UHGV virus genome: UHGV-1370141
From: a virus
Length of the DNA: 64,000 nucleotides
Direction: 5' to 3' (one strand)
The notes under the pieces are model-generated. The model worked only from the letters and a program-made list of their open reading frames with translations. It had not been told where the DNA came from and did no database searches. This document shows positions 24,973 through 42,809 of this stretch, one piece after another. Numbering within the stretch: the first letter of the stretch is position 1; each line of letters opens with the position of its first letter. Made by a program: the position numbers and the translations under genes.

Positions 24973-25384
24973 CAGTTACCTTCTTTGGAATAAATCGGAG
25001 GAAGTGTCCGTCTAAACGAAAGTAGAAACGCCAGCCGCGTGGAGGAATGCCCATTTCCTCGCACAACGCGTTTCGTACATAACTCGTTATCAAACGAACA
25101 TCTTCTTCCGTTGATTTCGGTCTAAACGACCTGACTATCGTGGTCACACAATGAGTATCCCATAAACCGGTCTCTGTAAAGTTCGGTATGAGATACTCAA
25201 GTAATGACAGAATCACGTACTTCAGTTGTTCCGCATCTGTACCAGAATACGACGACAACCTATCGTCCGCGAGTATGCGTTGGTACGCTTTATACGTCAC
25301 GTGTTCGAGTAGGGTGATTCGGATCGTATCTTTTTTCTGGGAAACAGTTGCGGTAGTGGACAAATCGGATATCTTCTCCAACAC
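24950..25384 (-). CDS. hypothetical protein
   Basis: 144-aa ORF. Confidence 0.5.
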   Translation of the reverse strand: MLEKISDLSTTATVSQKKDTIRITLLEHVTYKAYQRILADDRLSSYSGTDAEQLKYVILSLLEYLIPNFTETGLWDTHCVTTIVRSFRPKSTEEDVRLITSYVRNALCEEMGIPPRGWRFYFRLDGHFLRFIPKKVTDAYDDLY

Positions 25385-25919: not shown

Positions 25920-26152
25920 GTTTGCACAACTCCGTTTTTGTAAGAAAATGGACTGGAATGGTCACGACCTAAAGCACCAATCATAAACCAAGCGTCCGAA
26001 CCAAAATATCTTTCTGCAATCTTTAAGCAATCGCTGGGTAGGTTGTGTATCCCAGGATAAATCAGTTCCTGCATCGCTGTTAGAATTTCCTCAGGACGAT
26101 AGCGAACTGAATGGCTAGAGTCTGGCAGAAAACCAAAAAGTACGCGCGACAT
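25829..26152 (-). CDS. hypothetical protein (first gene of the 9-gene array)
   Basis: Track ORF 25829..26227 trimmed to the ATG at 26152 (M26), which is preceded by AAAGGAG; promoter motif further upstream. Confidence 0.5.
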   Translation of the reverse strand: MSRVLFGFLPDSSHSVRYRPEEILTAMQELIYPGIHNLPSDCLKIAERYFGSDAWFMIGALGRDHSSPFSYKNGVVQTWSKYTSIQLQFIITSGQRWKKQPTLPLCG

Positions 26153-26179
26153 TAACTTTAAATACTCCTTTAAGGGAAC

Positions 26180-26203
26180 ATCACAGAGATAATATCTATA
26201 CGA
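26180..26203 (-). promoter_or_regulatory. recurrent promoter-like motif (coding strand CGTATAGATATTATCTCTGTGATG)
   Basis: About 30 nt upstream of the SD of the first gene of the small-gene array. Approximate. Confidence 0.4.
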
Positions 26204-26318
26204 AAAAAGTTCGAGTATAGTGCGCACAGGAAGGGCATAGAGTGTATTTTTTAGTAGTGGTGTAGTTACCCATTACCCGATCCTATGAACCGTTTTACAG
26301 AGCTAACAGGAGCACACA

Positions 26319-27131
26319 ATGAGTGTCATCGACTACTGTCTACGGAGAATACGTCGAGAGATTCCAGAACCGATTCTTCGCGCTGCGTTTGTACCCAAAA
26401 ATCTTCGCTATTACGGTGTTGCGTCTTCCTTAGATAACGAGATTACTGAAAAGGTATTTAAAGAATACCTTATCCCAGAAGTTTCCCGTCTAGGTCAATA
26501 CACCGAAATCGACCTCCAAGGTTTACCTTTTGAGAACGACACCCAGGATTACTACTCACGTATCTATTACCTGGATGACATTAAGACCGGGGGTAGACCG
26601 ATACTGGACGTCCACATTGCCGTAACGCCGGTGGCAGGGCAAGCGTACACCTTACCCCCAGCAGGATCTTATTTAGACGGGGCAACTTCAGGGGTGCTGG
26701 CCTCCACGCAACAAGTAGTGGATAGTCAATCTGCAATGCCGCGTATCTCCTCACCCGAAGTTAAGAAACTTGGGCCGAACACCATCAAAATCAAAGACCC
26801 AGGAATGTTCGTCTACGCAACTAAGCTTCAAGTTAAGTTTGCAATGTCTGATGACTTAAACGAAATCAAACCGGCCTTCTATCCGGTAGTTGCAGATATG
26901 GCACTGTACGCCACTAAGCAGGTCATCTACAACAAAATGATTTTCGATATGGATTCAGGTCATCTTGAAAACGGTATGGAGTTCGGGGCGTTTAAAAACG
27001 TTATCGAAGGCTATTCCGACGCCGGGGAAATGTTCAACGACAACCTACCACGCCTACAGCGTGCGATGGTTCACAACGACGACGCAGGCAACCGTTACAA
27101 CTACATGTCTGGCGGTCGTTTCAAATCTTAA
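26319..27131 (+). CDS. hypothetical protein
   Basis: 270-aa plus-strand ORF followed by a bidirectional terminator. Confidence 0.55.
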   Translation: MSVIDYCLRRIRREIPEPILRAAFVPKNLRYYGVASSLDNEITEKVFKEYLIPEVSRLGQYTEIDLQGLPFENDTQDYYSRIYYLDDIKTGGRPILDVHIAVTPVAGQAYTLPPAGSYLDGATSGVLASTQQVVDSQSAMPRISSPEVKKLGPNTIKIKDPGMFVYATKLQVKFAMSDDLNEIKPAFYPVVADMALYATKQVIYNKMIFDMDSGHLENGMEFGAFKNVIEGYSDAGEMFNDNLPRLQRAMVHNDDAGNRYNYMSGGRFKS

Positions 27132-27186
27132 CAAAAAAAGAAAACCTACCCACTACTCCGTTCGAGTAGTGGGTCTTATCGTTTTC
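27131..27186. terminator. bidirectional rho-independent terminator
   Basis: 10-bp hairpin cccactactc-cgttc-gagtagtggg flanked by A-run and T-run, between convergent genes. Confidence 0.6.
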
Positions 27187-27565
27187 ACTGCAACATATTT
27201 TTTAAATGACATGCGGTTCCTGTTGTCCATGCCACACCGTTGCGAATGTTTTCAGGTTGGGCATTCACAAGTCGACGTAAAGAAATGATATTCTCCGCAG
27301 GGCCAGCAATCGGTAAGCTGTACGGAACCGTCATCTCTGCCATATATTGCACGACATCATCGTAACCCTCAGGTACACCCCAGTCGATGACTGAACCTTC
27401 AGCAATATCGCTGTAGCGTGTATTTTTGTATTCGTCAGGATGTAATACAAACCCCCACTCTAAAGACGAGATAAGTTTTTTGTCTAACTCGCACCGTAGA
27501 GTAATTTTACTCAATGCGTCCGGGTGCACCAAAATCACGTCCAGCGGACGCAGTGTAGTATTCAT
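27185..27565 (-). CDS. hypothetical protein
   Basis: 126-aa ORF. Confidence 0.5.
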   Translation of the reverse strand: MNTTLRPLDVILVHPDALSKITLRCELDKKLISSLEWGFVLHPDEYKNTRYSDIAEGSVIDWGVPEGYDDVVQYMAEMTVPYSLPIAGPAENIISLRRLVNAQPENIRNGVAWTTGTACHLKNMLQ

Positions 27566-27584
27566 TTTTCTCTCCCACTATAAC

Positions 27585-27986
27585 TCAATGGACATTAGAC
27601 AGCTTATTGGTTGCCTGGTACTGGAAACTACAGATTGCATCCAATAACACAGAGAAAGCTTCCATAACGGTAATCTGTTGGTTTATAACAGCATGACTGA
27701 TTTCAACCATAAACGACTGTACAAACTTTGATGTTGTAGCACAGACTTCGTTTCGGGTAATGTGATAATTCGTCCTGATAACAGGGACATCTTCATGCAT
27801 TAAAACAGAAGACACATCTTCAGACTCCATGCTATCAAACCATTCTTTAAAAGCAGGGTATTCAGTAATAATCGGCATTAGCATGTAGATAACATGAAAC
27901 CCCAATCGACTACGAATTGCAACTTCGTTCGGAAAACGCTTTTGTTCTAGTAAACTATAAAAATCGTATTGTGGTTGTTCGTTCAC
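27585..27986 (-). CDS. hypothetical protein
   Basis: 133-aa ORF. Confidence 0.5.
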   Translation of the reverse strand: MNEQPQYDFYSLLEQKRFPNEVAIRSRLGFHVIYMLMPIITEYPAFKEWFDSMESEDVSSVLMHEDVPVIRTNYHITRNEVCATTSKFVQSFMVEISHAVINQQITVMEAFSVLLDAICSFQYQATNKLSNVH

Positions 27987-28020
27987 GGTACCACCTCCTA
28001 TAAATACATACCAGTACCGT

Positions 28021-28053
28021 AAAAATCAAAAAAAATGGGGACACGCAGTCCCC
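28021..28053 (-). terminator. rho-independent terminator
   Basis: Hairpin ggggac-acgca-gtcccc preceded on plus strand by a long A-run (T-run on minus), downstream of the 28080..28520 gene. Confidence 0.55.
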
Positions 28054-28079
28054 AAACACCCTCTATAGCTGATTTATAG

Positions 28080-28520
28080 TTATACTAATTCGGCAACGTG
28101 TCGTTCGTGGTAGAGCTCTGCTAACTGCTTCGTTTTAATACGTAACTCACCTCTGTCGTAAACTAATACCCGACCTGCCCCGTTTGTTCCTAACTCGGTA
28201 TAAATCGCTAAACCGTACCGTCTTACAAATTCAATTGCCGGGAACGTAAATTCTTCACCGTCACAACGAAACACCAACATACACCACGGATTAGGGTTTA
28301 GGTGCTTACGCTCTTTCCCGTCCGCCCACCGTAAACTAAATTCATTCCGATTACGATTCAACACACGTTCAACGAATCGCTCTACTAACTTACCGGTTGG
28401 CCCATCTTCAGGTAACGCTTGCCACACGGAGAAATGTCGTGACAGAAACGGACGAATAACCGCCGCTTCTTCGAATGAATAACCCATACCCATTAATCCT
28501 TCAATCGCATCTAATTTCAT
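28080..28520 (-). CDS. hypothetical protein
   Basis: 146-aa ORF with promoter-like motif upstream. Confidence 0.5.
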   Translation of the reverse strand: MKLDAIEGLMGMGYSFEEAAVIRPFLSRHFSVWQALPEDGPTGKLVERFVERVLNRNRNEFSLRWADGKERKHLNPNPWCMLVFRCDGEEFTFPAIEFVRRYGLAIYTELGTNGAGRVLVYDRGELRIKTKQLAELYHERHVAELV

Positions 28521-28564
28521 TTTATCAGTTCCTAAAAAGTCGAAGTAAACGTTTCACGCGAACA

Positions 28565-28587
28565 CTCACTAAAATAATATCTATCTC
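28565..28587 (-). promoter_or_regulatory. recurrent promoter-like motif (coding strand GAGATAGATATTATTTTAGTGAG)
   Basis: About 50 nt upstream of the 28080..28520 start. Approximate. Confidence 0.45.
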
Positions 28588-28599
28588 TAAAATTTTGCG

Positions 28600-28637
28600 A
28601 TAAAAAAGAATATACCTACCTCCTTTCGGAGGTAGGT
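28600..28637 (-). terminator. rho-independent terminator (ACCTACCTCC/GGAGGTAGGT stem family)
   Basis: Hairpin acctacctcc-tttc-ggaggtaggt with T-run on minus strand, downstream of the 28741..29388 gene; the same stem sequence recurs near 45825. Confidence 0.55.
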
Positions 28638-28740
28638 ACGTTCCCTGGCATCGGCATGAAACTACAGGATTAAACCCTTCAGGGCATGAGAATGGGCATT
28701 CTCGAAGGGCGGGCTTTAGCTTTCGGCAGAGCTAAACTGG

Positions 28741-29388
28741 TTATCTCAGGTTATCGATGGTTTTACCTTCACTGTTCATGATGTAAACCGCATCACCTGG
28801 ATAGAAAAATTCGTAAGCATCGTCGACATGTAACACGCCGATAGCCTCGTCAACAGAGTGCTTACCGCTACGGAGCTGATTCTGATAGAAAGTATCACCG
28901 TCTTCGTTGATCAACTCGCGGACTAATTCGACTTCTTGAGATGGAATTGCAAAAGACATCTCTTCTAGGGTAAACCCTACAAAACGGCACACAAAGTCGA
29001 CTGTTACCCCAGGAACATAAATTTCATCGACGGACGTTTCTCCGGTATCCGGATTAAACGGTCGAATAAAAACGACACGTCCAGATGGTGAGGTAGCTTT
29101 CTGTCCTGGAAATGCCCAGGCCCAACCGTCGGTGTTTTTCAGAAATGGGTAAATGGCAGTCAACGTTGACGCTATAAGCAGAGGATCTAACCCTATCAGG
29201 GTCTCATACTCAATCCGAGTGGGTTTTCTCGGCAAATCGATGGCGCTGTTAAAACATAATTCGTTATTTTCGCCGTTAACGACTTTAAGTGCTTCTTTGT
29301 AAACACGGGACATTTTGTCACCTAAACGTACACGTTCGTGTACAGTGATGACTCGATCACCGTTAATGATACGTTTAACTGTAAGCAT
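28741..29388 (-). CDS. hypothetical protein
   Basis: 215-aa ORF. Confidence 0.55.
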   Translation of the reverse strand: MLTVKRIINGDRVITVHERVRLGDKMSRVYKEALKVVNGENNELCFNSAIDLPRKPTRIEYETLIGLDPLLIASTLTAIYPFLKNTDGWAWAFPGQKATSPSGRVVFIRPFNPDTGETSVDEIYVPGVTVDFVCRFVGFTLEEMSFAIPSQEVELVRELINEDGDTFYQNQLRSGKHSVDEAIGVLHVDDAYEFFYPGDAVYIMNSEGKTIDNLR

Positions 29389-29828
29389 TTCTGTTACCTC
29401 GTTCTGTTACTACTACTCGTTCTGTTGTACGTCGCTATACCCCGACGTGTGGGTTAATGGGACGCGTTGAACGTCTGTTGAGGCGCAGCAGGCAGTGGCA
29501 GCAATGACAGCAAGGGCAGCAATGGTACAAACGCCAACGCGAATAAAAAACGCTACTGTCACTGAACACAGCTTCAGAATACTGACAATAACGCAAAAAG
29601 GGTGTCGCTAACGGGTGTCGAGCCCCAGCCTCGGTGTGTAGCCACGTCACCAGGCATAGCGACAAAGTTCGGTACTGGTCAAACACAGCATGACATGGGA
29701 CGATGAAGGTTTACAGGTGATCATCGACCAGTACCGTCGAGTTAACACGTAACTCTCAATTCACATTACAGGGTATTCACGTTACACTTAGGGGAAATAC
29801 CCAATAATTAAATTCTTGGTGGGTGCAG

Positions 29829-29894
29829 GTGGGAGGTTTTATCCTCCCACCGTACAACCGTTTAGGTGGTCTAACCACCAGGGTCTCACGACCC
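29829..29894. other. cluster of three consecutive perfect stem-loops (structured RNA or processing site candidate)
   Basis: ggtgggagg-tttta-cctcccacc, ggtggt-ctaa-accacc, gggtc-tcac-gaccc; no flanking T-runs; non-coding context next to the tRNA-like element. Confidence 0.35.
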
Positions 29895-30042
29895 TAACGT
29901 AAGTCCGAACTTAATCGGTAGGTGTTTACACGTTTTTAAGGAGCTTTCTACCCGTGAGCAAGAGCAGAAGTTATCAGAACAACCGACGCTCAGTTGAAGG
30001 CTGACGAGTTTGTAACTCTTGTTCGATTGCTCTAATCTGGGC

Positions 30043-30115
30043 GACCAATGGCAGGATTCGAACCTGCGAAATAACCGATTATTAGTCGGGTGTTAATTCC
30101 TCTAACTTCAATGGT
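30043..30115 (-). tRNA. tRNA-like element (about 73 nt; anticodon uncertain, possibly pseudo-tRNA)
   Basis: Perfect T-arm GCAGG-TTCGAAT-CCTGC, 7-bp acceptor stem with one mismatch, anticodon-like stem-loop CCGA-CTAATAA-TCGG; D-arm weak and no encoded CCA. Hand-folded only. Confidence 0.4.
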
Positions 30116-30124
30116 CTAAATCCA

Positions 30125-30625
30125 TCAAAACAGCTTAAGTGATTGCGTTTGTCCGCCGCTGTACAGGTCGTAACGTTTCGCCACTTCCACCGCAGTGGGG
30201 GCGTCAACGCCAGCGCCTAATGCACCCAGGGCATAGTGAGCACCTGAGCCTATCGCATACGGTGGCTCTACAAACACGTAACTGGCGTATTTGTTGTCTT
30301 TGCACTTCGAGGCATCAATAACACGCCCGTCTGTCAAAACAGCAAGTACGATAAATTCAATCTGTTCGGGATACGTCGTTTCAAAACGAACCCCACCCCG
30401 TTCGATACCGCCGAAACGTTCAAGCGTGAGTTCTTGACGCACGGATTGCAATGCGGCGACATCACCTGCCAAACCAATCGCTTTCACGTCCTCACCCAAA
30501 AGCTTCCACGTCGTACCCTCAGGCGGCGTGTGAATCTTACGGTATTGCGTAGCAGCGCTTCGCTCTTCCACGGTGACTTGGCCATCGCAAGCTAACGTCT
30601 TTCCGTCAAAAACAATCGTGGTCAT
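30125..30625 (-). CDS. HslV-like peptidase (proteasome beta-type Ntn hydrolase)
   Basis: From the internal ATG: MTTIVFDGKTLACDGQVT resembles HslV MTTIVSVRRNG..IAGDGQ.T (Thr nucleophile after Met); YAIGSGAHYALGALGAG resembles IAIGSGGPYAQAAARAL. The track ORF 30125..30736 extends upstream, but the HslV-type N-terminus and the TAATG overlap with the upstream ORF favour the start at 30625. Confidence 0.6.
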   Translation of the reverse strand: MTTIVFDGKTLACDGQVTVEERSAATQYRKIHTPPEGTTWKLLGEDVKAIGLAGDVAALQSVRQELTLERFGGIERGGVRFETTYPEQIEFIVLAVLTDGRVIDASKCKDNKYASYVFVEPPYAIGSGAHYALGALGAGVDAPTAVEVAKRYDLYSGGQTQSLKLF

Positions 30626-30969
30626 TATGGCGAACCCCAATCCATGATGAACGTAGCCATGCACTGCTCGGCGTGTTTCATGATAGCTTTGTGCAAGCAT
30701 CTCTGAACCGCTGAGAACAGGTAAGGCCGATAACACACATGCGACTCCTTGGGAGACGGGGTGTGAGTAACCAACTGACCATCGGTGAGTTTAACACAAA
30801 CCGTAACAAGCTCTGTGTTTCGCCAATGGTTCACTGACACTGTCTCGATGCAGTTTAGCAGCGACGAATCATAACAACCCCAATTCTCGGGCGCTTTTAG
30901 CAGCCTGCCCAATTCATCGAGTCGGTACGGGACATTCGAACCGATGTTCGGAACGTCTTTGGAATCCAT
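30625..30969 (-). CDS. hypothetical protein, translationally coupled to the HslV-like gene
   Basis: Track ORF 30625..31065 starts with GTG and no SD; ATG at 30969 (M33) is preceded by AGGAGA; its stop overlaps the HslV-like start (TAATG). Confidence 0.45.
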   Translation of the reverse strand: MDSKDVPNIGSNVPYRLDELGRLLKAPENWGCYDSSLLNCIETVSVNHWRNTELVTVCVKLTDGQLVTHTPSPKESHVCYRPYLFSAVQRCLHKAIMKHAEQCMATFIMDWGSP

Positions 30970-31619
30970 ATTAAAATCTCCTGCCGTGGTTTGTGTCACA
31001 CCAACAGGAAACTCTGTAAAAAATAATTCAGCTGCGTACCGGCGTTTCTCAACGGGAGTACGCACCCCTCTCGTCTTTGCGAGCCGTCAAGCTAGAGGAC
31101 ATCACACTGCCAGCGCTACCTGGAGCAGGGTTGTTTCGACGCAACGTCGTAATTCGGATTCTGGCCGCACCTCTGGGAGCGCATCCCACCGTCGGCTGCC
31201 CGCAGGTAAGTTCTACGGACCTCTCGCCAACGTCGCCCCCAGAGGCTGCCACGGTTCACTCGGATTTTCTCATGTCGGCCACGCGTCGCTGATAGCGCGG
31301 CTTCCCCCAAACTTCGTAAGTCGCGGGAACGGTACCGAGCACCTGAATTCGTGGGGTTTACCAACCCCTGAGGTTTTTATCCGAAGTCACGGAAACCCCA
31401 TAGTAAAACAAACCGCCAGTGTTAGGCCGAACGTTTTGTTTTTCCCAGCACACGGTGAACTAAAATCCATGCACTTGAAAAAACACCCCTGGCCAATAAC
31501 CAACCAGGGGGTTCGAGCTCTGCTGAATCATCGCAGACAGTAATCGTGTTGAGCTGTGAGCAGTAATACCTGAACTCCGAAAAATCTTCGTGGTTGTAAA
31601 TCAACCCCACGCAAATCCT

Positions 31620-31857
31620 CCGAACATACCATAGGGTTTTAACGTTCGGAAAAGGGGAATGGGGGTTTACCCCTTGGGTCAGGTGTTCAGGATCTCCCCG
31701 GAAGGGTAACCCCTACCCGATCCCCCAGGTGGGGATTTTACCCTGGCGAATTACCCCGGGTACGATTTTCGGTTTTTCCGGAAAATACCGCTCACCGATC
31801 CCCACCCCCTCACCGGGGGTCAGAGCGAGATCAGATCTCATAATAAGGATCGCGCGC
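31620..31857. repeat. G-tract / C-tract rich structured flank of the AT-rich core
   Basis: Runs such as ggggaatgggggtttacccc, ccccggaagggtaacccctacccgatcccccaggtgggg, ccccaccccctcaccggggg; non-coding. Confidence 0.4.
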
Positions 31858-32270
31858 GTTTTATATATATTTATATATAATATATATTATATATAATAAT
31901 TATATTATTAATATATTTATTTAATATATTTATATTTATTAAAATAAATATATATTAAAATATATAATTAAATAATACCAAAAGGTATTATTATTTTGAT
32001 CCTAAAGGAATAATATATTTATAAATAAATATATTATACTATACGTGTGCGCACGCACACGCGTATAAGGAAGAGATCTTGAGATCAGGTTTTTGAGAGA
32101 GTTAAATTTTTAAGATCGATCCGAGAGACTTGAGGTCTCTCGAGAGTATTTAAAAAACCAAGCAAGATAACTACTCAACTTGAATCTTCAGTGTGTGAAG
32201 ATTCAAAACGTTGATCCAATCACTTGATCCGTTAGTACGCGAAGCGTGAATGTTTTTTTGATCGGCACGG
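31825..32270. promoter_or_regulatory. GATC-dense, palindrome-rich region around the AT core (candidate replication origin / DNA unwinding element)
   Basis: About 11 GATC sites in about 440 bp (expected 1-2), including agatcagatct, agatcttgagatcag, agatcgatcc; palindromes cgagagac-ttgag-gtctctcg and gaatcttca-gtgtg-tgaagattc. Confidence 0.4.
31858..32045. repeat. about 185-bp almost pure A/T tract (TATA/TAAT-rich) bounded by alternating GC elements
   Basis: tttatatatatttatatataatatatattatatataat... bounded by gatcgcgcgcg on the left and gtgtgcgcacgcacacgcg on the right; extreme compositional outlier in a ~48% GC genome. Confidence 0.8.
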
Positions 32271-32659
32271 CGGCTGGCCGTCGGGTGGCAGGGTCGGGTC
32301 TCACCCACCCCCGGCAAGGGGTCGTACGCTTTCTCAATCGCTCCACATCGCGCTAAACGGGGTCAGGTAACCCAAGTGTACTGGGTAGGGGTAAAAACCG
32401 CGTTAAAATCGTTTCTAGAGCGTTTTACGAAATCCGGTTAAAAAATCACCAACCGGATAGGGTTTCCAGAGACAATCCAGCACCCGGTTTTGGGGTTTGT
32501 TGCGGTTTGGGTTAAAATAAATTCTTCGACAGGGAATAAAACCCCGTCAAATTCTTCCTGAGAAGCTCTCTAACGAGAAAAACTCACCCAGGGTATACGA
32601 ACGTACCACCTCGACCTAAAAATGCGTTAGAATCGCTCTGAGGAGGTCGAAGTTTTTTT

Positions 32660-32711
32660 GGCAAAAAAAAAATAAAAAAAAACAGGTGGCCGAAGCCACC
32701 CGATATTTTTT
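32660..32711. terminator. bidirectional rho-independent terminator
   Basis: Hairpin ggtggc-cgaa-gccacc flanked by an about 20-nt A-run and an 8-nt T-run; immediately downstream of the 32712 gene on the minus strand. Confidence 0.6.
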
Positions 32712-33908: not shown

Positions 33909-35285
33909 ATGGCTGAACTGGTTTATGATTTTACCTCCGGTTGTTATCAAACCACCGGAACCCGCGTTGCTCAGGAATCGTTCGGTCACGACCCGTACTT
34001 CGACGACGCGGAAACCTCACCGGGTTTGTACTACGACTACGGTTTTGGTGGCTACGTACCGATGGGATTCTCCGTCGCTCACGAAGCCCGTCACGACGAC
34101 CGTTTACGTAAAGCGTTTGACAGCGTGTTTAACAAACTCGTGATTGATCGCAAGCTGGCGTCTAAGCTGCGTCACTACGTAAGCGGGATACTCTCTCGTG
34201 AAGGCAACGTGGAGTGGTTAGGGTCGAACCTCCTCGGTGTCCACAGCATTCGTTTTTTCGATTCTGACCGTAACCGTCTGTTCGATGAGGTGATTAACAT
34301 CGACGAAGACTATCTGTCAGAGTTGATTAAAGAGTCGCATTCCATCAATACCGATTGGCAGGTGGCGGGTGACACGTATAACCTGACCATCGTGTATCTG
34401 TTGCACCTGATGATTCCGAAGTTCGGTGACAAAGAGATTCTCGCTGCGGCTATCGACCTGGTGACGATTCTTCAGTTCAAATTTTACTCGAGTATTTACT
34501 ACCACTTCTTCCCGAAGCCGGTAGACTTACCTGCTGCCGAAGCCGCGTACTCGATGTTGTCGATGAAATTCGATATTCGTCGTTTAGGGAACTGGGGGTT
34601 GCACATGGCAGAACGTGCAACGTATTTCTGTTCTCCGGAATACCCTAACTACGATGCGGTAAAACGTTTCGATGCGCCGGATATGGTGTTGCGTTATATC
34701 ACCGACCTGAATACCCGTACGAAGCAAACCGTGAAAGACTACTACGCGGTGCTCGACCGTGTACGTCGTGAGAACGCTCGTGTGGTCAGCCAGTCGGCAC
34801 GTGTGGAATTAGACGGACAGTCGGTGATTCGTGACAAAGTCGGTGCGTTGGAAATCGCAAAACAGAACCTGTTTGATGCGTCTTACGATATCAACAATTT
34901 GTACAAAGAAGAGTTGGCGCGTGTGGTGCTGGAGATGGTACCGAAAGCGTCACCTGCGGCACTGAAAACGTTGCTGACGTATATCGCAGGACTCCCCATC
35001 GGGAAGAAACGTGATGAAGTTAACAGCATCATGGAAGACACGTTGTCTCACGCTTTTGACGAAATCGTTACCAACCGAATTAACTTCAATGATGCGGTCA
35101 CGGTATTACAGCGTATGCGTGCGTTGTACCAGGCGTCGAAATCGCCTAACCCGTATGTGTTGTCGTTGCGTTCTCGCATTGAGAAACTGGCAGCGAAAGA
35201 GACACACATTCGCCACGAGTCTGCGTTAGCTGCACTGCGTAACGCGCTACTGCTTTACTTCCTGATTCGTTCGTTACAGAAATAA
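33909..35285 (+). CDS. hypothetical protein
   Basis: 458-aa ORF with optimal codon usage (cgt, ctg rich); followed by a bidirectional terminator. Confidence 0.6.
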   Translation: MAELVYDFTSGCYQTTGTRVAQESFGHDPYFDDAETSPGLYYDYGFGGYVPMGFSVAHEARHDDRLRKAFDSVFNKLVIDRKLASKLRHYVSGILSREGNVEWLGSNLLGVHSIRFFDSDRNRLFDEVINIDEDYLSELIKESHSINTDWQVAGDTYNLTIVYLLHLMIPKFGDKEILAAAIDLVTILQFKFYSSIYYHFFPKPVDLPAAEAAYSMLSMKFDIRRLGNWGLHMAERATYFCSPEYPNYDAVKRFDAPDMVLRYITDLNTRTKQTVKDYYAVLDRVRRENARVVSQSARVELDGQSVIRDKVGALEIAKQNLFDASYDINNLYKEELARVVLEMVPKASPAALKTLLTYIAGLPIGKKRDEVNSIMEDTLSHAFDEIVTNRINFNDAVTVLQRMRALYQASKSPNPYVLSLRSRIEKLAAKETHIRHESALAALRNALLLYFLIRSLQK

Positions 35286-35335
35286 AAAAAGAGTTAGCCT
35301 GAGACCCCGGTGGGTCTCAGGCTAGTTTATTTTAA
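35284..35335. terminator. bidirectional rho-independent terminator
   Basis: 12-bp hairpin agcctgagaccc-cggt-gggtctcaggct flanked by A-run and T-run. Confidence 0.65.
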
Positions 35336-35341
35336 AAGGCT

Positions 35342-35581
35342 TCAATGGGCCCCGGATACCGCTAATAGGTGGATGGTGTACACCAAGTTTAGAGCGTAAG
35401 TCGTTGATGTCCCTGCCACCATTAATCCGAATACTGCTACCGCCTGCGCATACCGCGTCGTACGATGACACACACCGTGCGATGCACCGTATCGTTCTAT
35501 CGATTGGTAACTGTGTCTAATCATTTTGTACGTCGCGATCCACGAAAAGAACACGAGCAAATAGTAAATTGGAGCCATCAC
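35342..35581 (-). CDS. small hydrophobic (probably membrane) protein
   Basis: 79 aa with two hydrophobic segments (IYYLLVFFSWIATY, AVAVFGLMVAGTSTTYALNLVYTIHLLAV); start overlaps the terminase stop (ATGA). Confidence 0.4.
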   Translation of the reverse strand: MMAPIYYLLVFFSWIATYKMIRHSYQSIERYGASHGVCHRTTRYAQAVAVFGLMVAGTSTTYALNLVYTIHLLAVSGAH

Positions 35582-37686
35582 TTCATCCTCTGGCGTTGGA
35601 GAAGCTCTCTCAAGCTTTCCATTGACGCCACGTTTTGTGTATCAGTGTTAAGTTGAGAGATGAGGGCCTGAAGTCGGTTACGAGCGGCCATTGCTTGAAC
35701 CGGGTCGAGTAACCCGTGAGTCGTTCTCACTAACTGCTCAATTTCCCCCATCAGTTTTTGCTGTCGCGCTTCCTCTTCGAGCTGTAACTCTTCGTCCACC
35801 CCTTCCCGGTTTTCTGCCAAGTTACGATTACGCATCATCAATCGGCTGTTGTTGATCTCGTAATGTCCTAAGTTATTCCCAAGTAGCAATAACCACATCG
35901 CAAGTAACCAAGAAATCACAAGGTCATCGTGACCGGATGCTTTGTGGTCGATACGACCATTTTTCTCCACGAGGTTAAGAATTTGGTCGATGAGCTCTCC
36001 ACAACGGAGTTTATCGGCAGACAAGCGCAACGCGGTGGTGAATACCTCACCGTACAGTTTACGACGTTTCTCCTGGTCGGTTGAGAACCCGATGTATTTG
36101 CGGAATTTATTCCAGAATTTCTCTGCGCTCCCCACTGGGCCACGGTGATACTCTTTGTAGAGATCGTCCGTACGCGAGTAGTCCTGGGTGATTCGCACAA
36201 ACAAACGACGGTGTAAATCGGGTACCCGTGATTGCAATTGCAGGATAACCGCATCTGCAACGGATGAGCCTGTTGAGCGTCGTTCCAGAATCAGTACCGT
36301 GTTCGGATATCGCACCATAAAATCCGCTAAATGGATCGCGAACGAAATAACGTTGGATTCATTAACGGTAAGCTTACCGGCGTACTCGGCCGTGACTGAG
36401 TTGACGATGGACATGGCGATCGCATCTCGACCTACGGCTTCGGAGGTATCCAAACCGATGACATGACGATCTTTGAGTTTCATCATCATTTCTTCTTCGG
36501 TGTAGTACCAGTCGGTAACGTAGTTTTGTGGCGAGATATCTTTGAACACTGCACGCATTCGTGAAGCATTCATACGATCTGCATCTTCCGCTGAGAACGG
36601 CTTGTTCAGACCACCGGTCGTCCATTCGCCACCGAAGTCACGACGGATCTGGTCAGGGGTACCTTTGGCGTTCGCAATCATTGCCGCTAACTGTTCATCT
36701 GTGGTCCCGAGCTGACGGTGGTTGTACTTCACGTAGAACATGATACGTGGGACTTCTGCCGTGGAGTTAGAACGGATGATGTCAATGAGCTGTTTACGGG
36801 TTGGAATGTCGATATAGCGCTCATCCCACATAATCCCTGACGTCATCAGCTCGTACATGTACTTGCCTTCTTCCGTCGCTAAGTCACCAGGGGTTGTTGC
36901 GAATACGTTACCGTAAGGAACACCTTCCGCTTCGTTAATACGACGTGCCGCTGTACCGGATGCCAGCGCTGCCGGTAGAATGTGGTGTACGTTTTTGGTA
37001 AAGGGGCCTTCGTCCGAGAACAGACGACCAGCAGTAAGTCCACGACCGATACCGTTAGCGGACTCTGGGTCGTTTTGGCCGATACCTGTAATCAGTTTAT
37101 TACCCTGAGCTAAACACGCAAAGGTTTCTCGGTTATCTGGGTCATCAGGATGCGCTGGCCAGAGGTAACTCGGTAAACCGTTACGAAGTTGTTTCAGTTT
37201 GTTGATAGTTTCTTCACGCAGTGCCGGGCCTTTTGTGATAAGAATTGTTCGGGAGTTTTCTAAGAAACGAATCAACCACAGCAGTAAACCACTCATCCCG
37301 ACGGTTTTACCGTGCTGACGCAAGAACTCGACAGCAACGTCGATGTTGTTAAAGAAAATCCAGTACATCGAGAAGTTACCACGGTCGATACGGAACGGGG
37401 AACCGTACTTCATACCGTCCGCAGGCACCCTGACACATTCCCTGAACCAGTACCACGGGTTCTCAGCACATTCGATGGCGATGTATGCCTTCATCTGTTC
37501 TGAAAGGTTTTCATCGAACGGGTCTACGCCCTGCAACAGTGGGTTATGCAACGCCAGGTGAATATACCAGTGTTTGACACCCAGTTTTTTCAGTAAGTTA
37601 GCAAACTTGATAAAGGATTTGTTTGTTGTTTTATCGTCAACAATAGCGCCTGGATAATAACGCCAGTCCGATTCACGTAGTATCAT
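35578..37686 (-). CDS. terminase large subunit
   Basis: Deviant Walker A LRQHGKTVGMSG as in T4 gp17 (SRQLGKT); nuclease-domain-like IGLDTSEAVGRDAIAMSIV; 702 aa. Confidence 0.6.
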   Translation of the reverse strand: MILRESDWRYYPGAIVDDKTTNKSFIKFANLLKKLGVKHWYIHLALHNPLLQGVDPFDENLSEQMKAYIAIECAENPWYWFRECVRVPADGMKYGSPFRIDRGNFSMYWIFFNNIDVAVEFLRQHGKTVGMSGLLLWLIRFLENSRTILITKGPALREETINKLKQLRNGLPSYLWPAHPDDPDNRETFACLAQGNKLITGIGQNDPESANGIGRGLTAGRLFSDEGPFTKNVHHILPAALASGTAARRINEAEGVPYGNVFATTPGDLATEEGKYMYELMTSGIMWDERYIDIPTRKQLIDIIRSNSTAEVPRIMFYVKYNHRQLGTTDEQLAAMIANAKGTPDQIRRDFGGEWTTGGLNKPFSAEDADRMNASRMRAVFKDISPQNYVTDWYYTEEEMMMKLKDRHVIGLDTSEAVGRDAIAMSIVNSVTAEYAGKLTVNESNVISFAIHLADFMVRYPNTVLILERRSTGSSVADAVILQLQSRVPDLHRRLFVRITQDYSRTDDLYKEYHRGPVGSAEKFWNKFRKYIGFSTDQEKRRKLYGEVFTTALRLSADKLRCGELIDQILNLVEKNGRIDHKASGHDDLVISWLLAMWLLLLGNNLGHYEINNSRLMMRNRNLAENREGVDEELQLEEEARQQKLMGEIEQLVRTTHGLLDPVQAMAARNRLQALISQLNTDTQNVASMESLRELLQRQRMK

Positions 37687-37698
37687 ACAGACTCCTAA

Positions 37699-37737
37699 CC
37701 TCCTACCCTTGCGGGTAGGAGGTCTTTTATTTTTTAT
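37699..37737 (+). terminator. hairpin with T-run in plus orientation, between two minus-strand genes
   Basis: cctcctaccc-ttgc-gggtaggagg followed by TCTTTTATTTTTTATT; sits just upstream of the terminase SD on the opposite strand. Confidence 0.4.
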
Positions 37738-39374
37738 TCGATGTGATGCGCAAGCATCGGTGACGCTGCAAGGTTAAGCGTATCGGTTGGAGTACGACGA
37801 ATCCAACGGATCACCAACGGTGCGTCTAACGGGACGCGGTAATCGATAACTTTCTTATCTAACCACTCGTCCACGCTGTAGGTGTAAACTTTACCCCCAA
37901 CGTGAATTTCGAAATGGGTAGGTTCAGGCGGTTCCGATTCGTTACGGCGATCGTACAACGGATAAATCGGTTCGTACAGCAGTTTAAGCCACTCTGCTTT
38001 CGAGCTGACTTTGTTACTGACGTCGATTTCCGAGTAGTTAACGTTGGAGTATTTGAATTCCGCCCATACGTTTTCACCGTATTTCTCACCGTCAGGCAGA
38101 TACTCCAGAATGAAGTTGGTGTTCAGTTCGTTACCTGGATTTACCAGTGTAATCGCAAAGGACTGCGACTGGATAAACGCACGGAACTTACTGTCTACCT
38201 TGCTGATGTCAACCTGGACGTTTAGACGCTGTTTCACACCCATCAATAGCGGGTCAAACGTGGTGCCCGTTGTGTAGTTGACGTGTGCTGTTGCATCGTA
38301 AACCTTACCACGCGTCAGGTTATACAACAGGAAGTCCAGACGATAACCACGGGTAGCATCCAACCATCTCGGTACCACAAACAGTTTCATGGAGTAAGCC
38401 CCATCAACCTGTTCGGTGACAGCGGTGTAGTTCTTCACGATGGTGTCACCAACGATATCCGTACCACCGTAAGTTTCCCCTTTCGAGAGTTTGTAACTCA
38501 GTACGCAAGGGAGACTGTTACCGGCGTTAGACGCGATGTAGAAGGTGTCATGAGAACCGGCGTTACGTAAACCGTTGAATTTCACACGCGCCTGGTCTAT
38601 CGGTAAACGTTTGGTACCGTCACTGTAAATCACATCACACCACAACGGAATAGAGTCGATAGGCATGTTGATAGGCAGTGTCAGCGTGGTACCGTCGTTG
38701 TCCACCAAGAACGGAGAAACCAGCTTAATGCCCAATACTGTACGAGCCGGTGTTTCCTGTGCCATCACCAGGTTGGTTTTGATGATGTGGGCATGGCCGA
38801 TTTGTACCACGTTACCTACGTCCGAGTACACGGCAAACATACACGCTTCACCGTTCTCAACGTCGGCTAAGCACGCGCCAGGTAGCGTTTGTTTAACAAC
38901 ACGTTCAGCGCCTTCCACCGAGATGGTCTGTACGGGCAGGTACGTGTATTTGAGTTTACCGTCTTTGTAATACCCCGACAGGATTTCTGCGTGGTCATCT
39001 ACGGTGCTCCCACGGAAGACACGTACACCGTCTACGTCAGGTCCTTCAAACGTCAACGCGTTATCCAAGACCATCGTTGCAGGCAGTTTTGAACTGTCCA
39101 CGTAGACACGGTATTTGTCACTTCGTAATGGGTAGTGGCCATTCAGACGTCCGTCCTGGTTGGCAACACCCACCCCACCCCACGGTTCAGTTTCCCACGA
39201 GGGTTTCGCGTAGTTAACGCTTACGACGATATCAAAACCAGAGGTGATATCGTTAACGATCAGATCTTTCGGGTTCGGTACGTAACCGGTAGGTCGTTCC
39301 GCCGCGTAAAGCTCCTCAGGACGCCATACACGGAAACCGCGATCCTTGTTGATAATGTCAGTTGTTAAGGCCAT
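37734..39374 (-). CDS. hypothetical protein (possibly virion structural)
   Basis: 546-aa ORF immediately upstream of the terminase gene. Confidence 0.55.
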   Translation of the reverse strand: MALTTDIINKDRGFRVWRPEELYAAERPTGYVPNPKDLIVNDITSGFDIVVSVNYAKPSWETEPWGGVGVANQDGRLNGHYPLRSDKYRVYVDSSKLPATMVLDNALTFEGPDVDGVRVFRGSTVDDHAEILSGYYKDGKLKYTYLPVQTISVEGAERVVKQTLPGACLADVENGEACMFAVYSDVGNVVQIGHAHIIKTNLVMAQETPARTVLGIKLVSPFLVDNDGTTLTLPINMPIDSIPLWCDVIYSDGTKRLPIDQARVKFNGLRNAGSHDTFYIASNAGNSLPCVLSYKLSKGETYGGTDIVGDTIVKNYTAVTEQVDGAYSMKLFVVPRWLDATRGYRLDFLLYNLTRGKVYDATAHVNYTTGTTFDPLLMGVKQRLNVQVDISKVDSKFRAFIQSQSFAITLVNPGNELNTNFILEYLPDGEKYGENVWAEFKYSNVNYSEIDVSNKVSSKAEWLKLLYEPIYPLYDRRNESEPPEPTHFEIHVGGKVYTYSVDEWLDKKVIDYRVPLDAPLVIRWIRRTPTDTLNLAASPMLAHHIE

Positions 39375-39376
39375 GA

Positions 39377-41893
39377 TTAACCCTTGATTTTCAGATACTG
39401 GTTCAGCTGAACTTCACCGTTCAGGTACCGTTCGTTTACGCGGTCTAAGAACGCAAAACCGAGTTCGTTGATTTCCACCGTCTCGTATTTGACGTGTGGG
39501 TGGAGTTTGACGAACGCTTTATCGTAGCCGATATACGCCGGGTCGAAGGGAAGCAGATCTTTGTAACGTTCCATGATCTCATCCAACTGAGTCGTTGAGA
39601 TACGGTAGTCAGGATCGTCTTCTCGCAGGATTAAAATACCGTTTAGGTAATCCCACATGATTTTGTTCAGTGTCGGCGAATACAGGTGGTATAAGTGCGG
39701 TAGCGGTACCGGGTTTTCAGGCGGTGGTGTTGGGAACCAGTGTGTCATGTAATTCTCAACACGCGTGTCCAGGTCTCGGGCAACGTCACGCAATTCGTAC
39801 GTGTCCCCGGTGACCATCGTCAGTAACGGGATAGTCGGGTCGTCAACCGAGTACGGATAACCGTCGTCAACGATATTGACCCCAACGGTGTTGTCTTCAC
39901 GGAACACCACTTCATCACGCAGCAGTAAAGAACCGCCAGCCACAACACGAATGACTTTGTCATCACGACAATCGAATTGGCTGTTGTTAGACAGTAAGCC
40001 ACTGGAGACAAACCCGTGTTTCGGTATACGCAGCATACCCGTTACTCCACGGCAGCGTACGGCGATATGGTTGTCTTCGTCGTCACTTACCCAGGACTTA
40101 CACACCACGACGATTTCAGGCCAAATAACGTGATAGTCGATACCGTGTACCAGCGGGTGGCCGTTTAACCACACTTCAACGGTTTCCATCGGAATCCACA
40201 GCGTACGCTGGTTCCCTTCCTGGTTACGTGCCATAATCGGAATACGGATTTCCCCTTCCCGTACTGCAAAGGTGGTCTCGAAGAACAGATGACGGTCGTC
40301 GTAAATCACCGTTGGATGACGTCGCGTTCTGTCTACCGACCAGGTAATCTTGTTCCCGTCCCGTTCGTAGTCCGTCCCTTCTACCGCTTCGATATACTCG
40401 TCACGAGGAATATCGTCAATGACTTTACGTAACCAGAGGTTAACGTTTTCACCTTCGTTAATCACGAAGTCATCGGCGTTATCGACAATGGTCACCGCGT
40501 CGTCTTTTGCCCCCGCAATCGCTTCGATAATGCGTGCGTTGGGATTACGAGCTTGGTAAACGTCATAACCTGTGTTTTGATGCGCCTCTAACAGTAAACC
40601 ATCACCGTCGTATTCGTATACGGTGGAGTTAACCGCCAGTAACGCAGGGAGCGTTGCACGATAACCACCTTCGGTTAAGGTCAGGCGCTGCGGTGTGTCA
40701 GCTGCGTAACGCGTAACGGCATTATAACCGTAAGCGTCAGTGCACAGGTCACGGTTAATGTTTTCCAGCTTAGCCGCAGCCAAACGGTTAAACGCAGCCT
40801 GTTCTAAGTTAGCCGCTTGCCACTCCGTTACGTTGGCGTTAGCGCCAATCATCGCGTCGATAATCAGCTCGTCAGTGAGACGATACAAATCGTGGACGTG
40901 GGACGAGTTATACAGCGGCGTAATGTCCAGATAGTCGTCACGGATAATAAGACGAATGACCAGTTCATCTAAGTCGGTGATAGACTCGTTAAAGACATTA
41001 CGGTATTTCGCAATGCGTTCAGTCGGGATTGCCAAATCGTTCCACGTTAGCTGACGCATCGCCTGGTGACGATGACGGTGGTAATAACGACCGCGACCTT
41101 TCCAGAACAGCTGAATTTCGGCGTCGTTGTTGAAAATCCAAATCCCGTCTTTTTTCGGAATGTGGAGCAAATACTTACGCTTGCTGTCGAGCGTAGACAT
41201 AAACGTCGGTAAGTCGCCACAACGGAATTCAACGATGCGGCGTACACGACCGTCAACACGAATGTCGATGTCGTCCCAGACTTTAATGTCTTGCGTTTTC
41301 GGTGAGTCGATTAATTCACCGTTTAACCAGAACTCAACGTAACCTTTATTCTGTTGCTTAAGTAGGTTATACCGATCGACGACTCTCTGAACCTGTTCGC
41401 GGTTAGGCGGTGAGAAATACTCAACGGTGGTTGGGTTAATATACGGTGCGTTTTCACCCCCACTGTAACCCGGATAAATTCGCAGGTAGCAGATGTCTTC
41501 TTCTAACCAGCTATAGCGATCGGATTGTGGGATAGCCATGTAAACCATCCCAGAGCTGGTGCGGTAAAAGTAGACGTACTCAGAGGGGATCGAAACTCCG
41601 CTCTCGTTGTAGACCAGCATCCAGGTACTGAAGCCGTTCACACACGTTGAAAGCTTCTTCCAACGGTTTAGGGGGATGGCTAAGTTCCCCCAGTTTACGT
41701 GAAGTTTATCAATAGCGAATGCGTGCCACCAGGTATTTTCTTTCGGTAGCGCTACCGGTGTCCGACCGTGTTTGAAAAAGCCGATCGCCCCGGTCTTGGG
41801 TGAAAGACGGAAGGGTGCAATGTTCAACACCCCGTCGAGATATGGACGCTGCCACGCTTTTTGGATGGCGTGGGCGACCAGCCAGTTCTCCAT
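39377..41893 (-). CDS. hypothetical protein (possibly virion structural)
   Basis: 838-aa ORF, 3 nt from the next gene. Confidence 0.55.
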   Translation of the reverse strand: MENWLVAHAIQKAWQRPYLDGVLNIAPFRLSPKTGAIGFFKHGRTPVALPKENTWWHAFAIDKLHVNWGNLAIPLNRWKKLSTCVNGFSTWMLVYNESGVSIPSEYVYFYRTSSGMVYMAIPQSDRYSWLEEDICYLRIYPGYSGGENAPYINPTTVEYFSPPNREQVQRVVDRYNLLKQQNKGYVEFWLNGELIDSPKTQDIKVWDDIDIRVDGRVRRIVEFRCGDLPTFMSTLDSKRKYLLHIPKKDGIWIFNNDAEIQLFWKGRGRYYHRHRHQAMRQLTWNDLAIPTERIAKYRNVFNESITDLDELVIRLIIRDDYLDITPLYNSSHVHDLYRLTDELIIDAMIGANANVTEWQAANLEQAAFNRLAAAKLENINRDLCTDAYGYNAVTRYAADTPQRLTLTEGGYRATLPALLAVNSTVYEYDGDGLLLEAHQNTGYDVYQARNPNARIIEAIAGAKDDAVTIVDNADDFVINEGENVNLWLRKVIDDIPRDEYIEAVEGTDYERDGNKITWSVDRTRRHPTVIYDDRHLFFETTFAVREGEIRIPIMARNQEGNQRTLWIPMETVEVWLNGHPLVHGIDYHVIWPEIVVVCKSWVSDDEDNHIAVRCRGVTGMLRIPKHGFVSSGLLSNNSQFDCRDDKVIRVVAGGSLLLRDEVVFREDNTVGVNIVDDGYPYSVDDPTIPLLTMVTGDTYELRDVARDLDTRVENYMTHWFPTPPPENPVPLPHLYHLYSPTLNKIMWDYLNGILILREDDPDYRISTTQLDEIMERYKDLLPFDPAYIGYDKAFVKLHPHVKYETVEINELGFAFLDRVNERYLNGEVQLNQYLKIKG

Positions 41894-41903
41894 AGTGGAC
41901 CTC

Positions 41904-42809
41904 TTACTGGATATTTAAGGGTTTGGTATTCTGGTTCAGTAATGTATCGTAAGCGATGGTAAACGCATCTTTACGTTTTGCTACGTCACATTTCTTAATC
42001 AGCCCACCCAAACGTGAACGGTTGAACACCGAGTTTTCTAAACAGGTGCGGACAATCACAAACAGCGATGGCGGATATTCGATGGCGCTCGTTACCAACT
42101 GGCGGTCGTAGCTGATGTAGCTGCCTAAGCTGGTCGCCAGCATTGACTGCAAGCTAACCACGCTCAGTTCATTAAGACGTGGGATGCCTGCTGCTTTAAC
42201 CATCTCAACGAATTCACCGATATTACGCGGGAACAGAAACTCGGTATTACCGGTGACGGTTTCGAAAAACTGTGGCGAAAGTCGCAGTTCACGTTCCAAC
42301 TGCTGCTGCATACGCAGCATTTTTACTTCATCTTCGAAGTTGTTATAGAACTGTCCTACGGAAAACAGCGCTGCGAGTGCCTTGACTTGACCGCTTTGAT
42401 ATGGAGCAAGTGCATAGGTGTGTTCAATCGCATCGCTAATCCACCTGCTGAAGATCTCATGGTGATAAGACATTCGGGCCATCAACGCACCGAGCTTATC
42501 ATTGTTCCGTTTCCACACTAATTCCCAACGTGCTTCGTCTAGACGTAATTGGTGCTCAATGGGGTTACGAATTTTTAACTCGCCGTTTTTATCGAGCGTC
42601 GTAAAAGTTCGTGCGTCAACGTACACGTCATCACCAATGACGATAGGTAACGGGAACGGTTTTACATCGGCTGTTTCGATAACGTAATGGACTTCTTCAG
42701 ACTGAGCAACAGTTTGGTTAACCTTACGAGCCAATTCCAAGTCCGCGTGTAAGCGGGTAAGGTCTATGGTATTAAAGGGAGTGCCGTTGTAAGCGTTTTT
42801 GAGTGCCAT
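41904..42809 (-). CDS. hypothetical protein
   Basis: 301-aa ORF at the head of the minus-strand block. Confidence 0.55.
   Translation of the reverse strand: MALKNAYNGTPFNTIDLTRLHADLELARKVNQTVAQSEEVHYVIETADVKPFPLPIVIGDDVYVDARTFTTLDKNGELKIRNPIEHQLRLDEARWELVWKRNNDKLGALMARMSYHHEIFSRWISDAIEHTYALAPYQSGQVKALAALFSVGQFYNNFEDEVKMLRMQQQLERELRLSPQFFETVTGNTEFLFPRNIGEFVEMVKAAGIPRLNELSVVSLQSMLATSLGSYISYDRQLVTSAIEYPPSLFVIVRTCLENSVFNRSRLGGLIKKCDVAKRKDAFTIAYDTLLNQNTKPLNIQ

Follow-up and report, generated by a model that had tools for sequence, protein, structure and literature searches.

Small membrane proteins encoded near phage terminases

In phage T7, genes for membrane proteins of the lysis pathway lie among the terminase genes, in the order holin 17.5, TerS 18, spanins 18.5/18.7, TerL (terminase large subunit) 19 and 19.5, the last encoding a 49-aa predicted membrane protein. 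Mutations in gene 19.5 compensate for the loss of the holin/endolysin, and its product is viewed as a candidate secondary holin or lysis-timing factor, a role that is itself only proposed (PMC2680503). The gene analyzed here is located at 35342..35578 (minus strand) of a viral DNA of 64,000 nt (UHGV virus genome UHGV-1370141), referred to as the window. Like T7 gene 19.5, it encodes a small predicted membrane protein and is the last gene after TerL in a late unit. The likeness concerns position and composition and does not extend to the sequence (hhalign probability 0.11%, E 0.5); gp19.5 has one TM segment, not two, and its gene lies 259 nt and a promoter past gene 19, not in a stop/start coupling. 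The T7 order, with the holin, the spanins and 19.5 among or after terminase genes 18 and 19, nevertheless contradicts the view, expressed in the original prediction, that such a protein is unusual for a packaging module.

Class II holins and pinholins (e.g. T7 gp17.5 and phage 21 S21) also resemble the present protein, in having 65–90 aa and two hydrophobic helices, in being expressed late and in possessing a helix whose many small or polar residues could line an oligomeric pore. They differ by an N-in/C-in topology, instead of the N-out/C-out topology predicted here, and by a charged tail, a dual start and an adjacent endolysin gene, of which the tail, a conserved dual start and the neighboring endolysin are missing at this locus; no similarity links the protein to T7 gp17.5 (hhalign probability 0.05%). 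Small TM ORFs trailing an enzyme gene have been proposed to encode membrane anchors, namely T4 gp47.1 after gp46/47 and SPN3US gp187 after SbcC (PMC5105663). Both T4 gp47.1 and SPN3US gp187 (171400-171591) are unrelated in sequence to the present protein and have a single TM segment, and their anchoring function is itself only a proposal.

Direct relatives are found in family phrog_8972, which includes SPN3US gp261 (ACQ60_gp005), Asesino gp282, ChrisDB gp282 and Huxley gp272, with CR5_225 and Derbicus gp233 as positional and profile homologues. The gene of the window is a further member of this catalogued but uncharacterized family, which it matches over its full length (E 9.7e-20, 71.9 bits, residues 2-79 versus profile positions 1-78 of 79). 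It shares with the other members its length, its position after TerL, the stop/start junction and the terminator, and nothing essential differs. The closest identities are at most 96% to a metagenomic protein and ∼45% to Asesino gp282. The protein joins the many conserved small membrane proteins that databases already list as hypothetical, and nothing in it points to a new mechanism.

Start codon and junction with TerL

The minus-strand ORF spans 35342..35581; to reach 79 codons, translation would have to start at a GTG (35581..35579), as in the ORF list. This in-frame GTG (35579..35581, minus strand) lies one codon 5′ of an ATG (35578..35576), from which a CDS of 78 aa (35342..35578, minus strand; stop TAA/TGA codon at 35344..35342) is delimited by the ORF list, the PHROG match, the homologues and dN/dS. 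The ATG is invariant in 16/16 homologous junctions compared, and database homologues are all called from ATG. The GTG at –3, on the other hand, is replaced by GTA in Huxley and by ATA in CR5 and Derbicus, and differs in the metagenomic loci L017 and L019. Because the ATG is invariant and the GTG is absent from several relatives, the protein most likely has 78 aa and starts at the ATG, the GTG being probably not a start. The interval 35342-35581 given in the original prediction is thus exact, but the 79 aa assigned to it need the non-conserved GTG, and the coding strand is the minus strand. A dual start of the lambda S type (GTG-ATG, ‘MM’) is rejected, since several relatives lack the GTG, which moreover would contribute no charge.

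TerL (702 aa; 35578..37686, minus strand) is identified by matches to phrog_2 (E 6e-62) and phrog_32359. Its stop TGA occupies 35580..35578, so that the final base of this codon is also the first base of the ATG of the small ORF. On the coding strand the junction reads ...AGAGGATGAAGTGATGGCT, also given as ...CAGAGGATGAAGTGATGGCTCCA. At its core, GTGATGG, the overlap is GTGA (4 nt) with the GTG start or TGATG (1 nt) with the ATG start. The ‘ATGA’ overlap on the terminase stop that had been described for this locus is therefore incorrect, while the tie between the start of the ORF and the TerL stop, noticed at the same time, exists in every relative compared. Indeed, a stop/start overlap or a gap of ≤1 nt next to TerL is seen in 16/16 junctions compared, with the final base of the TerL stop serving as the first base of the ORF in SPN3US, Asesino, ChrisDB, Huxley, Caitlin, pEa_SNUABM_29, SPAsTU, CR5 and Derbicus. 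A Shine–Dalgarno sequence AGAGGA (35586..35591, minus strand) is located within the final TerL codons, 7 nt 5′ of the ATG; the corresponding junction cAGAGGATGAAgtgATG is kept in 15/16 loci, with caaAGGATGAAttcATG in L017. A programmed frameshift joining TerL to the small ORF was also considered and rejected, no slippery site being evident at the junction (by inspection only).

Distribution and selection

The window can be assigned to a jumbo phage of the SPN3US/phiEaH2 group, because its TerL is 81-85% identical to the SPN3US and Asesino TerL; the DNA identity to any sequenced phage is only ∼77%. Full-length homologues of the small protein are detected by tblastn in 49 phage genomes of the genera Seoulvirus, Erskinevirus and Machinavirus, and a query with CR5_225 (Derbicusvirus type) adds nine phage records. 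When all phage records with a TerL ≥60% identical to that of the window are considered, at least 58 of the 61 jumbo-phage records have the small gene directly 3′ of TerL, which bears out the conservation downstream of the terminase that had been put forward as a check. The nearest relatives, 72-96% identical, come from metagenomes or from contigs labelled ‘E. coli’, in which the synteny is the same, and the genes of two distant homologues (P0026 and P0030, 21-23% identity) also follow TerL, in one case through an ATGA overlap and in the other after a gap of 1 nt.

A profile (HMM) search of 1.84 billion representative proteins gives 15 matches, 14 of them of 75-84 aa, and no relatives outside the clade; the 15th match, P0024 with 1684 aa, is an artefact of translating tandem repeats and not a homologue. 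Six relatives that encode chimallin and share the ‘structural - structural - TerL’ module (phiKZ, 201phi2-1, LucasX, Deimos-Minion, RSF1 and PhiEaH1) have no hydrophobic ORF after TerL. For this reason, the phrog_8972 gene is an invention of the SPN3US-like clade, not a general need of this terminase type.

Many spurious ORFs of similar size occur in the window, and a length of 79 codons alone is not beyond chance. One explanation to be weighed is thus that the ORF itself is spurious and that its conservation comes from a 3′ untranslated or regulatory RNA of the TerL transcript. The shortness of the ORF and its absence from the annotation of some records (phiEaH2, SEGD1, SPLA1a and JN03, where it is nonetheless present) would fit, and we know of no proteomic detection of the product. 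The pattern of substitutions, however, is that of a protein. In pairs with unsaturated dS, the dN/dS of the small gene is 0.09-0.23 (Nei–Gojobori), as compared with 0.03-0.08 for TerL in the same pairs, so that the small gene evolves 3-4 times faster, and values so well below 1 effectively refute the RNA explanation. Further, dS is near saturation in the most divergent pairs, yet the reading frame, the length (75-84 aa) and the pattern of hydrophobicity have been maintained. The alignment of the family (37 distinct sequences; the copy of the window is 17-96% identical to members) is almost gapless down to 17% identity, its sole insertion being one residue in Derbicusvirus-type sequences, and the Shine–Dalgarno sequence and the ATG are conserved. 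A spurious ORF is accordingly hardly credible. Collectively, conservation, dN/dS, the full-length PHROG match, the conserved Shine–Dalgarno sequence and a strong terminator establish that the small ORF encodes a real protein and is subject to purifying selection.

Predicted topology and fold

Residues M1, W13 and H70 are invariant in the family, and H22, G56, T60 and Y67 nearly so. Hydropathy and charge counts predict a first TM segment at codons 4-20 (35519..35569, minus strand), which holds W13. It is followed by a basic, partly amphipathic loop or helical extension at codons 21-46 (35441..35518, minus strand), predicted to be cytoplasmic and opening with the conserved R21-H22. A second long charge-free helix covers codons 47-78 (35345..35440, minus strand); it is hydrophobic throughout residues 47-58, contains H70 and leads to the C-terminus ...LAVSGAH. 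The partition of charges is pronounced over the 37 sequences: K+R per sequence amounts to 0 (residues 1-3), 0.16 (4-20), 4.24 (21-46) and 0.05 (47-78), and D+E to 0 (4-20), 1.35 (21-46) and 0.05 (47-78). Loop 21-46 therefore holds almost all charges of the protein, family-wide. Averaged over the family, the Kyte–Doolittle (KD) value reaches 2.19 in the stretch 4-20 and 1.99 in the stretch 47-58. The stretch 56-75 is amphipathic but carries no charge, and has a polar stripe made of G56, T57, T60, N64, Y67, T68, Q71 and S75.

The copy of the window is the weakest of the family in this respect. Its best 19-residue KD means are 1.29 and 1.35, below the classical cut-off of 1.6, whereas the maxima of relatives reach 2.26 and 1.94. 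The two hydrophobic segments announced in the original prediction are thus present, and charge-free family-wide, but stay under the cut-off in the very copy for which they were described. The wider claim of a small two-helix membrane protein fares better, being supported by the charge-free segments, the basic loop and the AlphaFold2 (AF2) model. The latter, computed from a 22-sequence alignment, is an antiparallel helical hairpin (pLDDT 88) with helices at 2-34 and 38-76 and a turn at residues 35-37. From hydropathy, charge partition and the positive-inside rule, we infer that the product is a 78-residue helical hairpin of the inner membrane, with N-out/C-out topology and a basic cytoplasmic loop. 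Both termini would be periplasmic, because the positive-inside rule places the basic loop 21-46 in the cytoplasm.

Searches against known families (Pfam, PHROGs, NCBIfam and PADLOC), with this protein and 20 diverse members, give no match other than phrog_8972; the other matches are scattered, single-member and sub-threshold, and concern unrelated membrane proteins. A profile search of PDB sequences yields only a TM helix of fumarate reductase cytochrome b (E∼0.1). In a Foldseek comparison of the AF2 model with the PDB, no match is below E 0.6, and those obtained are generic hairpins (MscS TM1-2, coiled coils, TerS cores and the ATPase c-subunit).

The mention of TerS cores brings in another explanation, namely a soluble oligomeric helical hairpin that binds TerL as a minimal TerS-like or regulatory subunit. 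To our knowledge, no TerS has been identified for phiKZ-like phages, and the small gene adjoins TerL and is coupled to it. The long two-helix hairpin of the AF2 model recalls the T4-type TerS core, also a helical hairpin ring; 44RR gp16 (E 6.6) and T6 TerS (together E 4.7-6.6, probability 0.13) are among the Foldseek matches, all of which are non-significant, and the KD values below 1.6 in this copy would suit a soluble protein. What speaks for the membrane is family-wide: 17 + 32 essentially charge-free columns in 37 sequences, with a mean KD of ∼2, are not seen in soluble coiled coils. The composition is membrane-like, no TerS match exists in Pfam, PHROGs, NCBIfam or PDB sequences, and no DNA-binding domain is detected in Pfam, PHROG or NCBIfam. 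Moreover, the gene is absent from phiKZ and other relatives that would need the same subunit. A soluble TerL partner is, on these grounds, very improbable, and the membrane hairpin is retained below.

Operon, terminator and possible partners

An intrinsic terminator (35285..35324, minus strand), with a 13-bp stem, a 4-nt loop and a U-run, is found by a terminator scan and RNA folding. It starts 18 nt past the stop of the small ORF and is bidirectional, its GC-rich stem being common to a convergent 458-aa gene (33909..35285, plus strand; phrog_2921, function not assigned in PHROG) that ends there. The fold has an energy of –26.3 kcal/mol and a z value of –6.6, with 0/200 shuffles equally stable. 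An equivalent hairpin exists 3′ of the phiEaH2 homologue, and the convergent-gene arrangement is the same in all Seoulvirus, Erskinevirus and Machinavirus loci compared.

Upstream of TerL, the ORF map gives, on the same minus strand, a 301-aa gene (41904..42809), an 838-aa gene with DUF7193 (39377..41893) and a gene for a 546-aa virion structural protein (37734..39374; phrog_3430 virion structural protein). The gene order is identical in SPN3US, Asesino, ChrisDB, CR5 and metagenomic contigs. The series 301 aa - 838 aa - 546 aa - TerL - small ORF (upstream genes 37734..42809) has the appearance of a late operon. The small gene is the last cistron of the TerL transcription unit, closed by the strong terminator, and is probably expressed late.

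This context brings to mind a membrane-bound morphogenesis or packaging factor, made in step with TerL, whose hairpin would tether head assembly or TerL at the inner membrane. It could, for example, help to nucleate or to release proheads, whose assembly in SPN3US takes place on the inner membrane. The TerL stop/start junction, strictly conserved at protein identities of 17-96%, and the location within a structural/packaging operon are in keeping with such a function, for which T4 offers a precedent in gp40, a membrane-associated head-vertex chaperone (by annotation). Several facts go the other way. The present protein has no homology to gp40 (hhalign probability 0.06%), its cytoplasmic loop has only ∼26 residues, and no hydrophobic ORF follows TerL in the relatives phiKZ, 201phi2-1, LucasX, Deimos-Minion, RSF1 and PhiEaH1. 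Phages that form a nucleus package their DNA at the nuclear shell. SPN3US encodes a chimallin homologue (PMC9365700). Therefore, the shell, not the cell membrane, is the expected site of packaging in SPN3US. A literature search, finally, retrieved no SPN3US paper naming gp261. Taken as a whole, a role in morphogenesis or packaging is rather unlikely, although it is the strongest rival of the lysis role considered below.

The same terminal position could be that of an accessory gene riding the end of the TerL operon, with a host-directed membrane protein as product, involved in superinfection exclusion (as T4 Imm) or in the inhibition of a host membrane or defence function. T4 Imm is close in size (83 aa), has two hydrophobic segments in a two-TM layout and comes from a large virulent myovirus. 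The limitation of the family to one jumbo-phage clade and its evolution 3-4 times faster than TerL, as is often the case for accessory genes, agree with this explanation. On the other hand, Imm has a short loop and a charged C-tail that finds no counterpart here, and is encoded by an early gene unlinked to terminase; homology is lacking (hhalign probability 0.4%). Superinfection-exclusion genes are normally early, whereas the present gene closes an operon for structural and packaging proteins. It keeps a fixed position in the ≥58/61 clade members, unlike typical morons, and the PADLOC defence-system scan yields no match. A host-directed function is thus improbable.

A possible role in lysis

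When a virulent phage makes a small membrane hairpin late and in multiple copies, the function of such a hairpin is most often lysis. Annotations of the present phage group include no holin (PMC11180984). For these two reasons, participation in lysis, as a timing factor that either is of holin type or modulates a holin, is ranked first by analogy, as a leading but tentative guess that may well prove wrong.

The comparison with holins gives a mixed picture. Small size and at least one TM domain are holin traits that are present (75-84 aa with two charge-free hydrophobic segments, as judged from hydropathy only). The charged hydrophilic C-terminal domain of holins is absent, given the 0.05 K+R and 0.05 D+E per sequence in residues 47-78, and the predicted N-out/C-out topology is unlike that of holin classes I–III. 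With cut-offs as permissive as E≤10 for Pfam and E≤1 for NCBIfam, none of 20 members matches a holin model, nor does any match the ‘lysis’ category of PHROGs; no homology tying the small protein to lysis is found, and its tight coupling to TerL would suit packaging or assembly just as well. The ‘holin-like’ character suggested in the original prediction is consequently acceptable for size and hydrophobic helices, but does not extend to holin models, to a charged tail, to topology (opposite to that of class II) or to proximity of lysis enzymes. The membrane-anchoring function suggested alongside it is neither strengthened nor weakened by these comparisons.

Linkage to endolysin or spanin genes, another holin trait, is likewise absent in SPN3US, where the map positions are 236.5 kb for gp261, 135.4 kb for the GH108 endolysin (which has no membrane-protein neighbor), 175 kb for an SLT transglycosylase and 180 kb for a spanin-like pair. 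Such linkage is not obligatory for holins, as seen in T4 and T7. Two genes past the SLT transglycosylase, SPN3US has a more holin-like ORF of 86 aa, which combines hydrophobic segments with an Arg-rich tail, and ∼3 kb beyond it the pair made of an i-spanin-like protein (TM and Pro-rich tail) and a lipoprotein. From its gene content, this SLT/86-aa-ORF cluster would be a better place for the canonical SPN3US holin. The 86-aa ORF is found only in Seoulvirus, whereas the gp261 family is clade-wide.

It is tempting to go further and to propose that the family is either the missing holin or lysis clock of the clade, of a new topology (N-out/C-out and tailless), or a TerL-coupled tether joining prohead assembly to packaging. 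This proposal is unlikely as it stands. In both readings, coupling to TerL would fix the amount of the hairpin relative to the packaging machinery, so that events at the membrane would be linked to the completion of packaging. In jumbo phages of the phiKZ/SPN3US type, little is understood of how lysis is controlled or of the steps of head assembly that involve the membrane; the strictly conserved TerL-coupled hairpin is a well-defined candidate that could be studied at little cost with the genetic tools of SPN3US.

Putative mode of expression and action

Because the TerL stop and the ATG share one base and a GAGGA Shine–Dalgarno sequence lies within TerL, two routes of initiation can be envisaged: ribosomes ending TerL could re-initiate on the ATG of the small ORF, and free ribosomes could also start there via the Shine–Dalgarno sequence. 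The product would insert in the host inner membrane as a hairpin, with a 3-residue N-terminus and the C-terminus in the periplasm. TM1 would correspond to residues 4-20, the loop or short coiled extension 21-46 would be cytoplasmic, and TM2 would begin at residue 47 and run into the uncharged amphipathic stretch with G56, T60, Y67 and H70. By analogy, oligomerization in the membrane may occur via the Gly/Ser/Thr-rich polar stripe and the conserved polar and aromatic residues. Action in the lysis pathway as a timing factor, also proposed by analogy, would be the final and weakest step.

The subclade to which the copy of the window belongs comes only from metagenomes and E. coli assemblies (P0001-P0005). 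Besides being the least hydrophobic of the family, this copy has a lysine, K18, and keeps H22 like P0001, versus E22 in P0002-P0005.

Putative lysis genes in SPN3US

In SPN3US, genes with possible lysis roles appear to be dispersed. The section of its genome spanning positions 150001–195000 (L029; coordinates count within the section) encodes an SLT transglycosylase (25058–25780), a holin-like ORF of 86 aa that combines hydrophobic segments with an Arg-rich C-terminal tail (26428–26688), a Pro-rich protein with a transmembrane segment (phrog_8719; 30017–30487) and a lipoprotein whose lipobox reads LLLTGC (phrog_8165; 30497–30976). The last two resemble an i-/o-spanin pair, and no PHROG was found for the 86-aa ORF. 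Together, the four genes constitute a putative scattered lysis cluster; none of them (25058–30976) is labelled with such a role in the SPN3US annotation. In another section (L028), a predicted lipoprotein of 163 aa (MKRLFIVFAIINLLAGC...), annotated as hypothetical, is encoded on the minus strand at 37623–38114, ∼1.6 kb from the GH108 endolysin gene.

Small hydrophobic ORFs also occur elsewhere in L029, where three in a row (63, 67/82 and 43 aa; 21400–21997) lie immediately downstream of the SMC/SbcC-like gene. The first, gp187, is a possible membrane anchor of SbcCD according to Thomas et al. (PMC5105663).

The terminase gene and its upstream hairpin

The C-terminal ∼110 residues of the terminase large subunit TerL (residues ∼593–702; window 35578–35910) are aligned by tblastn exclusively in the SPN3US clade and in phiKZ-type phages. 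For the remaining relatives, the alignment stops at residue 592, and these proteins have C-terminal extensions of their own, which are charged and coiled-coil-like. Upstream, TerL is separated from the 546-aa structural gene by 47 nt, which contain a GC-rich hairpin of 11 bp (window 37698–37723). Read on the coding (minus) strand, an A/U-run precedes the hairpin and none follows it, and the Shine–Dalgarno sequence of TerL (AGGAG) adjoins its 3′ arm. The hairpin looks like either a plus-strand terminator or a translational or RNA-stability element for TerL.

Possible non-coding region and tRNA gene

No convincing ORF is found over ∼2 kb at window 30740–32710, where short ORFs overlap on both strands. 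GC content is 0.55 at 31000–31500 versus 0.39 at 31500–32000. Patches of the region match, at 75% identity, the unannotated SPN3US positions 56–1145 as well as the equivalent regions of 42 further relatives; an Rfam search of the region gave no match. This stretch may represent conserved non-coding sequence at the conventional genome ends, with an origin, a pac site or an ncRNA as candidates. A 169-aa gene of SPN3US (239373–239882), which there follows a 377-aa gene, is seemingly absent from the window and its closest relatives. The single tRNA gene, a tRNAIle with anticodon AAT called by ARAGORN at window 30040–30116 (minus strand), was confirmed as a tRNA by Rfam (40 bits).

Uncultured close relatives

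The closest relatives of the window, represented by two homologues of the 78-aa membrane protein and their contigs (P0002 on L024 and L025; P0004 on L022 and L023), are uncultured. Among their proteins, one carries the database title ‘hypothetical protein BHS87_25810 [Escherichia coli]’, so that an E. coli assembly includes jumbo-phage contigs. The index of the assembly collection lists P0004 in 264 blocks, and the metagenomic contigs reach ∼228 kb. This spread and the E. coli deposit suggest that this lineage of SPN3US-like phages, from the gut or the environment, is common and has yet to be isolated.
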